A stretch of 64,000 nucleotides of DNA from NCBI RefSeq assembly GCF_033153115.1, contig NW_026889782.1:24304001-24368000 (forward strand), read 5' to 3'. The position numbers were made by a program, and so were the translations under genes. Source of the stretch: Saccostrea echinata. Its lineage: Eukaryota. Shown one piece after another: positions 10,710 through 12,841 of the stretch. Every line of letters begins with the position of its first letter. Position 1 is the first letter of the stretch. The notes below the pieces were generated by a model that had not been told where the DNA came from, did not search any database, and saw only the letters and a list, made by a program, of their open reading frames with translations.

Positions 10710-12841
10710 TGGGTATTATTTAAACAAATTAAATACATAGCTATGATAAGCAAGGATGACTCTACCGAAATTGTGAAATTCATAGCCCCAGGGTCAGGGA
10801 TTCTGGTGCTAGGGCGGGGCTATATAGATCATTTAATGAAAGTGCATTATTTCTTTGAAAATCTTCTTCTCTTTTCCTGGGTATTATTTAAACAAATACA
10901 TGGTTATGATAAGCAAGGATGCCTCTTCCAATATTGTGAATTTCATGGCCCCTGGATCAGAGGTTCTGATATTAGGACGGGGCTCTATTTATTAAATAGT
11001 GAAAATGCATTAATGCTTTAAAAATATTCTCTGCGCCTAGGCATATCAGAGGCAAAAAGAGTAAAAGTTTTAATAAGGAAGGGTATTTTTACCAAATTTT
11101 TGAACATCAGAACCATTTGATCAAGTGTTCTGGTCCAGGCCAGTGCTCTATTAATTTGTATTCTACTGAAAGGAGTTATTCCCCTTTACCAATTACTGGT
11201 GATAATTAATCACTGTAAATAATGTACTTGAAAGGTTAATAGAATAAGAGAATTATGCAAGAATTTTTATTGTATAATACAAAAAGTTCTTTCATAGTTT
11301 TAATGATCAGATAGACTTGTAAGTAACATATAAATAAAAATGAGACAAAAATACCTTGTCTTATTAAATGTTCATCAAAGACCAAGAGAGATCAATGTAA
11401 GAAATTTCAACTAGGAATTAAAAGAGTACAGAAGCACTGATTATAAGTTTGTTTATATACTGTCTAGTGAGAGGGATAAATGGGGAACAGAATAGAACCT
11501 AATTTATGTACTGTTAATGAACACTAGACTAATTATTTTGTTGATCCTGATCACCCTATTTTTCTTGCTTTTGGGCAACAAAGCTTCACCTTTCAGTTCA
11601 TGTTATACTCTATGGATCCTCTAAATTGTTGTATTATACTCAGGTGACCGTTAAGGCCCTTGAGCCTCTTGTCTTTTACCAAATGTCTTTAAATTTCTGT
11701 TTAACTAGGAATCTCCCCCCCCCCCCCCAAGACCTCCAACTGAAAGAAGAGCCAGTGAAAAGGGGGATAAAAAGATCACTGAGCGAGTCAGAGGACTCGA
11801 TTATTTTAACTCGAAGGTAAATCTTACCTTTAAGGAATATTCTCTCTCTCTCTCTTTCTCTCTCTCTCGTTAATTTGCTTATATTGTAAACTTTTTTTAA
11901 TTGTATTTTTTTTAAAGGAAAATGGTAAAACAAAAAGGGAAAGGCGGGTTCATTGAAGAAACAGATAAAGAGGACCCACAGCTGAAAACATTTAGGTATA
12001 GTTGTTTTCATAAGTTAAGTGTATTACAAATGTACATGTCGACCTTTGATACGAAAAAAAAGAATGATACAATAAACAATAAAAAATATAAAGATTGAAT
12101 AATTATCTTGAAAACAGAATAACTCTATAGTTTAAAGTCTTAGAATTTAAATGTAGACCTATGTTAATCATTAAAGACTTAAACATTTTTTTTTTCAATA
12201 TTTTCTTAACAGATTAGGTCTTAGTATGCTCGGTTAGATACTTGATGTTTTGTTCTTTAATTACAGACAGGAAAAAGCCTGGAAAATATGAAGCCCTGGA
12301 AAAGAGAACTAGTACCAGGTGTACGTTCACCTTAGGATCGTTGACACCTAGATATACCTCAGCAGCATCAGGATATAGCCCAGCGTCACCAGGGTATAGC
12401 CCAGTGTCACCAAGCCCCGCATCACCAGGGTATAGCCCAGTGTCACCAGAATATACTCCAGCGTGTCAAGGATCACAAGGATATGTCCCTGTGAAACAAG
12501 AACATGTCCTTCCTTCACCTGATCACACCTGGACTCCACTTCAGGCTCCATTTATGAATACCCCAGCGTCATCGGGGTATGCTCAGATGACATGCAGCCC
12601 TGTGTATGAAGATTCTCAATATCCTTTAAAAGAGGAGTTGGGGGCACTGTCCGAATTAATCGACTCTCTGCGAGTAGATCTACTTCAAAGTTCAATGCTT
12701 GTGAAGTTTGTTCGAGATTATATGAAAAAATGGAATAAAAGAGAACTGACAGTGGAATTAAAGAGAACTGACAGTGAAATTTTTTATTTTGTACCGATAA
12801 GTTTTGGTCATACGTGTCCACAGATCATTTTATCATATTAA
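9105..12841 (+). CDS. Four-exon 286-aa predicted nuclear protein with Pol II CTD-like YSPxSPx heptads ('gene A'); exons 9105-9208, 11709-11816, 11918-11995, 12271-12841
   Basis: TATAAATAG at 9020; all introns are GT-AG and phase 2; the exons total 861 nt and are open; AATAAA at ~12893. The protein contains YSPASPG, YSPVSPS, YSPVSPE, LKEE/VKQE and KRGIKR. Confidence 0.7.
9787..11672 (+). mobile_element. Non-autonomous Helentron with a 165-168 bp satellite array (oyster 166-bp satellite-like), in intron 1 of gene A
   Basis: 5' hairpin AGGTCACCTGAG-tga-CTCAGGTGACCT, then (GTCC/GTC)n. Monomers start at 10102, 10267, 10435, 10603 and 10771. The 3' end has CTCAGGTGACC plus the palindrome AGGCCC-TTG-AGCCT. 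Confidence 0.92.

Follow-up and report, generated by a model that had tools for sequence, protein, structure and literature searches.

Among the closest described counterparts of the oyster protein family treated here is the RPB1 CTD (PF05001). The family shares with it Tyr1, Pro3, Ser5, Pro6 and mostly Ser2, a 7-residue spacing in most arrays and a disordered context, whereas it has no polymerase domain, 0-9 units against 26-52 in the CTD, replacements of both Thr4 and Ser7, and a motif that is internal and followed by a predicted coiled coil. The accessible text of PMC6548728 gives the minimal functional CTD unit as five heptads in mammals and two (a di-heptad) in yeast, so a family protein could not replace a CTD; by analogy with the NIM mimics of yeast it could bind single readers. 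The NIMs of Sen1, Trf4 and Mpp6, as described in the available sections of PMC7110113, are likewise short Tyr-containing motifs in a disordered region of a non-polymerase protein. However, a NIM is present only once and has an acidic stretch where the phosphate would be, while the oyster family keeps real Ser-Pro sites, can be multimeric and appears to be element-borne.

Parasite-encoded proteins that intersect the CTD cycle, as the oyster protein would, include influenza polymerase and gammaherpesvirus ORF24; these bind the host CTD, whereas the oyster protein would imitate it. In the open-licence PMC and bioRxiv literature we found no Maverick-, transposon- or virus-encoded CTD mimic, and subscription papers, Repbase and supplements could describe such ORFs. 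In Maverick/Polinton elements accessory regions flank the core modules (PMC8097293, accessible text), and the gene described here correspondingly adjoins a terminus with an (ACT)2 end; it differs in being spliced and in having no linked core module or left end in the window. No description of the oyster family among Maverick/Polinton accessory genes was found in the accessible parts of that literature. If true, an element that encodes a CTD-like tail would take over host transcription by a new route, and one of the first testable functions would be assigned to an accessory gene of Mavericks. Should mimicry prove wrong, the locus would still introduce an oyster protein family that has not been described, shows signs of horizontal spread and contains unexpected introns; its natural variants, which carry 0-9 units at periods of 7, 9 or 18, can serve directly as a test series.

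The window, i.e. the whole stretch of DNA analysed, comprises 64,000 nt from Saccostrea echinata. The open four-exon, 286-aa gene reported in a first-pass annotation of this stretch is present in the sequence, and homologs match all four exons (tblastn and family profile). All introns are GT-AG and in phase 2, and the gene and the features described along it lie on the forward strand. Exon 1 (9105-9208) contains the start codon and an acidic-aromatic block with a predicted helix, which may be activation-domain-like; it is matched by the homologs P0004 (tblastn, 54%, E 4e-5) and P0011 (50%) and by the family profile (E 1.6e-5). Exon 2 (11709-11816) holds a basic NLS-like cluster and the conserved EDS(L/I)IL block, and is 71% identical to P0001. 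The middle helical block begins in exon 3 (11918-11995), corresponding to helices 105-127 in the model of the homolog P0019, and ends in exon 4 (12271-12841), which continues with a Ser/Pro-rich linker, the C-terminal helix and a read-through tail. The best named match of exon 4, Ostrea edulis XP_056003957.1 at 77%, identifies the window as oyster-type DNA. A putative TATA box (TATAAA, 9020-9025) lies 85 nt upstream of the ATG, and AATAAA follows the gene at 12893. Intron 1 owes its length of 2.5 kb to an insertion of the HINE (non-autonomous Helentron) type with a satellite array of 5.6 copies of 168 bp (9788-11675, right edge approximate), in which a 14-bp inverted pair occupies 9788-9816 and the same 12-mer recurs at 11638-11649. 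Its repeats and layout fit those of HINE and Cg_HINE elements in the accessible text of PMC7492417, namely a 5' subTIR with an inverted repeat, a microsatellite, central tandem repeats, and a 3' subTIR with a palindrome.

The CTD-like array of exon 4 occupies 12353-12472 and consists of six units with a period of 21 (TRF); its translation is reproduced as previously written. It matches the Rpb1 repeat of Pfam (PF05001) at 26.1 bits against a gathering cut-off of 20.3, and the only three matches to Y[ST]PxSP in the six-frame translation of the whole window all fall inside it. The claim that the heptads preserve Y1, S2, P3, S5 and P6 holds for most units, with Y1 and P3 in 5/6 and S2, S5 and P6 in 4/6 each, but only three of the six are complete; T4 and S7 occur in none. 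The reported lack of an RPB1 domain is borne out, as Pfam recognised no other Pol II domain in 206 of the 210 stop-free window pieces of at least 62 aa. No catalytic Rpb1 domain, nor any Pfam family other than PF05001, occurs in the window piece or in the 47 aligned members of the family, 8 of which match PF05001 at E up to 0.05. The three motifs of SUMO consensus noted earlier (LKEE twice and VKQE) are present, although the SUMO reading of LKEE is weak: the first LKEE of the window copy is absent from homologs, and the C-terminal one is the start of a conserved helix whose Lys is variable, being kept in 36 of 61 rows. In the linkers the pattern psi-K-x-E/D occurs in 5 of 26 sequence clusters against 1.35 expected, which we regard as a weak lead only.

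Searches with exon 4 yielded 12 matches among 258 candidates and 47 representatives, and a further 24 matches, 10 of them new, came from a profile search in which 8000 candidates were scored. Four sequences matched through repeats only (P0040, P0047, P0053, P0054) and were removed before all family counts; of 55 distinct ids, 51 have a C-terminal block of about 40 residues in common. Members with a species name, including those from look-ups of 30 representatives, come from O. edulis, Magallana gigas, M. angulata, S. echinata, S. cucullata and the pearl oyster Pinctada imbricata, with one further record from the oyster parasite Bonamia ostreae that is probably oyster contamination; most matches carry no species name, so that the named members give a partial view of the range. 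Seven pattern matches in GTDB contigs were not confirmed. In the common architecture an acidic-Trp helix, a basic NLS-like cluster and the EDS(L/I)IL block are followed by the helical middle block, which a Ser/Pro/Thr-rich linker that cannot be aligned connects to the C-terminal helix. The NLS-like cluster and DSLIL block are present in all 12 listed rows, and the last intron position is common to the family. No PDB sequence matched the family profile at E up to 1, and the ESM Atlas gave no usable match for P0004. Judged from these alignments, the gene is a member of a real, conserved, multicopy and undescribed family, and the "RPB1-like" label that NCBI gives to some RefSeq members is a misnaming of it. 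A short, probable decayed paralog lies at 27799-28489 on the forward strand (edges approximate), with a MAEEF start and the acidic-Trp and middle blocks, lacking heptads and the C-terminal helix; its scores are weak (tblastn E 0.02, profile E 0.3-1). The promoter and first-exon region of this paralog is duplicated at 81% (26317-26869 and 27665-28233). On the reverse strand, 60721-60852 is matched by the tail of the member P0060 (tblastn E 0.001).

The conservation of the array motif was assessed with one representative for each of 26 clusters at 60% identity. Y[ST]PxSP occurs in 15 of the 26, where shuffled sequences predict 0.11, or 0.65 if the shuffle leaves Ser-Pro and Thr-Pro pairs intact. 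Where both linker flanks are recognised by pattern, it occurs in 9 of 10 linkers against 0.40 expected (22 of 24 before de-duplication, both flanks being recognised in 24 of 67 rows). A second Tyr at +7 (YxPxSPxY) is found in 7 of 26 clusters against 0.02 expected. The clusters share ancestry and are not independent trials, so these shuffle figures overstate significance. The motif is present in both main clades of the family tree; it is missing from 11 of the 26 clusters, several of which are fragments, although P0055 is complete, and relaxed variants with Tyr-Ser-Pro only occur in clusters without the full motif. The search for homologs with YSPxSP that had been proposed thus finds them, with a shared exon structure and a motif far above chance expectation. 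The heptad periodicity expected of them is kept in part: units are spaced by 7 or 14 in most arrays, whereas two arrays have periods of 9 and 18 and many members have a single unit, the number per member ranging from 0 to 9. Over 55 units, position 4 is Ala or Val in 46 and Thr in one, Ser occupies position 7 in four and position 2 in 41. On this comparison the motif, which contains a tyrosine and lies in a disordered region, is conserved beyond chance, and we interpret it as CTD-like and selected.

The feature that defines the family is the C-terminal amphipathic helix (12620-12733 in the window copy), a predicted self-associating coiled coil within the block common to 51 of the 55 matches. 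AlphaFold gives the homolog P0019 a C-terminal helix of 36 residues (pLDDT 85-91) in an otherwise mostly disordered chain, and its hydrophobic residues, as read from the sequence, follow a 3-4 pattern. A four-copy model of this helix reached 0.53 against 0.00 for the best control, with a contact agreement of at least 87% between runs and a partner pLDDT of at least 71, values to be read against a two-copy calibration and with regard to the fact that a coiled coil may pass by generic likeness. In that calibration 21 of 30 solved pairs from microbes and 17 of 29 from eukaryotes attained the model mark, as against 0 of 23 microbial and 0 of 30 eukaryotic single chains; among eukaryotic pairs that lack an older solved relative, only 1 of 7 did so. 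The modelling lends support to a putative self-association of the family helix. A Foldseek comparison of a low-confidence model (pTM 0.24) with viral structures returned no matches at E up to 0.001, and is uninformative with such a model.

We tentatively interpret the window gene as a decaying accessory gene at the right end of oyster Maverick/Polinton-type elements, whose intact members would be oligomeric nuclear proteins displaying CTD-like phosphosites for transcription CDKs and CTD readers. Intact members would be small nuclear proteins with an acidic-aromatic N-terminal helix, an NLS and a short helical middle block, in which one to nine Y-x-P-x-S-P units lie in a disordered linker ahead of the C-terminal coiled coil. 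The coiled coil would join several chains, so that several CTD-like units are shown at once, and owing to oligomerisation single-motif members would still be multivalent. Transcription CDKs of the CDK7/CDK9 type would phosphorylate the Ser-Pro sites, these would be recognised by CTD readers such as capping enzyme, Pin1 and CID proteins, and the host Pol II machinery might be biased toward the genes of the element or away from those of the host. The fullest version of this proposal, in which oyster Mavericks encode a spliced, horizontally spreading, oligomeric Pol II CTD mimic, is doubtful. As a phospho-CTD scaffold or decoy made by the parasite, such a mimic would attract CDK7/CDK9, capping enzyme and CID proteins or titrate them away, and slippage would tune its repeat number.

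Nearly as likely as a CTD-like regulator is the same element-borne regulator with YSPxSP as a generic proline-directed phosphoswitch or degron for its own stability or activity, i.e. a MAPK-type P-x-S-P, cell-cycle CDK or Pin1 site, the CTD likeness being convergent and the arrays products of slippage. P-x-S-P is a MAPK-type kinase consensus, and the conserved unit, often a single hexapeptide, fits a generic phosphosite of this kind about as well as a CTD mimic. The single-copy motif in many clusters, the tolerance of periods 9 and 18, the absence of Thr4 and Ser7, the variation at position 2 and the Tyr-Ser-Pro-only variants all agree with such a switch. It needs, however, neither Tyr at position 1 nor a second Tyr at +7, and yet both are strongly enriched.

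Both of these readings place the gene on a mobile element, and its membership of a Maverick/Polinton-type element is probable. The candidate right end (13299-13506, forward strand) consists of GC-rich subterminal repeats with periods of 25, 51 and 65, which come 460 nt past the stop of the gene, a C-run and (ACT)2 at 13501-13506. Maverick ends of the types (AGT)2//(ACT)2 and (AG)3//(CT)3 are reported in the accessible text of PMC8097293, so that (ACT)2 is a published end type; the 6-mer is weak evidence alone, since 13 such 7-mers occur in the window when both strands are counted. Among 14 gene models with long tails, three have mis-predicted last exons that translate similar repeats, namely P0012 of M. 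gigas (E 7e-6) and P0057 (E 3e-5), which are near-identical and therefore not independent, and, weakly, P0015 of S. echinata (E 0.007-0.04). A second candidate right end at 29568-29583 (forward strand) is identical in 16/16 nt to 13494-13509 (E 0.012-0.014 within the window) and has different subterminal repeats; it lies 3' of the probable decayed paralog at 27.8-28.5 kb. The 3 nt that follow are also identical at both candidate ends, which makes the precise terminus uncertain. The earlier description of the gene as lying beside a Maverick terminus accordingly stands in part: the pairing of gene and terminus recurs in Magallana and more weakly in Saccostrea models and the end motif fits a published type, but a left inverted repeat, a target-site duplication and a core gene linked to it were looked for and not found. 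In particular, 13231-13512 has no inverted copy within the window, where the partner could lie outside or be lost, no left end or 6-bp target-site duplication was found for the element of this gene, and no core gene (PolB, integrase, ATPase, protease, capsid) was detected to the left of it, Maverick core domains being absent from the same 206 of 210 window pieces.

Improbable, although it has several points in its favour, is the alternative that the family is an ordinary or domesticated multigene family of the oyster host that lies by chance among Maverick debris. The window gene has three introns, the last at a position conserved in the family, whereas the genes of intact vertebrate Mavericks are reported as intronless in the accessible text of PMC8097293; conserved spliceosomal introns, the lack of a linked core gene and the tandem-numbered S. 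echinata loci LOC133180114/116 all agree with a host family. Against it, the same subterminal repeats stand behind homologs of other genera, decayed copies occur, and the family tree does not follow species, each genome having several divergent, deep lineages. One pair departs further from the species relationships: P0027 of Pinctada imbricata (KAK3107312.1) is identical to one O. edulis member in 44 of 51 positions (86%), including 11 of 12 linker residues. By comparison, two O. edulis paralogs are 42% identical, and the median for the family over the same stretch is 25/50. The high identity of the pair suggests horizontal transfer, with the qualification that the P. imbricata record is only 52 aa long and could be contamination.

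That the array is a neutral 21-bp minisatellite in a low-complexity linker, with its CTD likeness due to chance, is very improbable. Copy number varies from 0 to 9, the units of the window array are near-identical at the DNA level and its flanking units lack Pro3, Ser5 or Pro6, as such a minisatellite would lead one to expect. However, the motif is kept, often as one copy, across clusters with less than 60% identity whose linkers do not otherwise align, and its recurrence in 15 of the 26 divergent clusters, where 0.11-0.65 would be expected, argues that it is not a chance minisatellite. Least probable of all is a captured and eroding piece of a host RPB1 CTD exon without present function, which would explain the PF05001 match and the "RPB1-like" names, as the 51 family matches contain no exact YSPTSPS and, the protein-level comparison shows a uniform loss of Thr4 and Ser7 alongside retained Tyr1, Pro3, Ser5 and Pro6.

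Returning to the tentative interpretation as a decaying accessory gene, the window copy departs from the family in two places, and the term "intact" previously applied to it has to be withdrawn. In homologs exon 4 begins at the counterpart of AG 12265-12266, one of two tandem acceptors in a segment with a frame break relative to the family (12265-12278, forward strand). Spliced at this site, the window copy has a frame that closes early, at 104 codons; the 286 codons need the AG 4 nt downstream (12269-12270). At the other end, the frames of the closest relatives terminate just past the residues that correspond to about 12736, whereas the window copy runs on for about 34 codons (12734-12841) across a 22-bp tandem duplication (12731-12781). 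As both breaks fall in short A-runs, an assembly or sequencing error is possible at either. The end branch of the window copy in the family tree is likewise long (0.24, against 0.097 in its sister), and the copy, damaged or mis-assembled, is probably defective. Open full-length members exist in Magallana and Saccostrea.

The window is crowded with mobile elements, among them an LTR retrotransposon, satellite-bearing insertions and polymerase-B relics. The polymerase-B relics are two broken N-terminal parts of protein-primed enzymes; their presence in the window adds to the indirect case for a Maverick origin, although both lie beyond the candidate right end. For a polymerase-B relic the ESM Atlas returned only hypothetical clusters. 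The first relic (33295-33886, forward strand), outside the candidate element, is matched by P0071, a sequence with PF03175 (tblastn E 5e-16); the second (58944-60068, reverse strand) is 84% identical over 70% of the query to Saccostrea LOC134248892, which also has PF03175. Just upstream of the latter, 60468-61264 is duplicated at 61774-62569. An rve match at 36.6-40.5 kb belongs to the pol of the LTR retrotransposon (36198-40844, reverse strand), which has an open pol frame of 1298 aa and was inserted very recently, since its two 135-bp repeats are 100% identical. Our literature search on AGTAGT-Polinton ends or oyster Mavericks returned nothing specific, and the accessible texts of PMC10294476 and bioRxiv 2023.08.22.554363 contain no oyster-specific Maverick detail.

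Further repetitive and gene-like segments occur throughout the window. Two related spliced gene relics at 13560-15900 and 24050-24590 (both forward strand; phmmer E 6.5e-5) have no informative Pfam match, the first of them beginning just past the candidate end at 13506. A frameshifted gene relic at 30677-31420 (forward strand) lies between the second candidate end and the polymerase relic at 33.3 kb. The ORFs at 13.6, 24.1 and 30.7 kb look PC4-like, but Pfam gave no support to this identity, and it is not claimed. A block shared at 76-79% between 24739-26134 (forward) and 61028-62971 (reverse), of which the copies all end in TACTACT and have different flanks, is probably another (ACT)2-ended element. 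At 15924-16173, AGTAGTAGT is followed by a G-run and 66-bp repeats that are not similar to the 13.5-kb end; this is possibly the left end of a further element. Broken TatD DNase-like frames at 43264-44222 (reverse strand), within a GC-richer segment of 42.5-48.4 kb, are possibly the cargo of another retroelement. A near-palindrome of about 210 bp occupies 17989-18202, with 59-bp arms at 92% and an internal 48-bp duplication, and at 4628-5336 (reverse strand) a 246-bp unit is repeated in tandem, each copy seemingly containing a Thr/Ser-rich exon of a mucin-like host gene.
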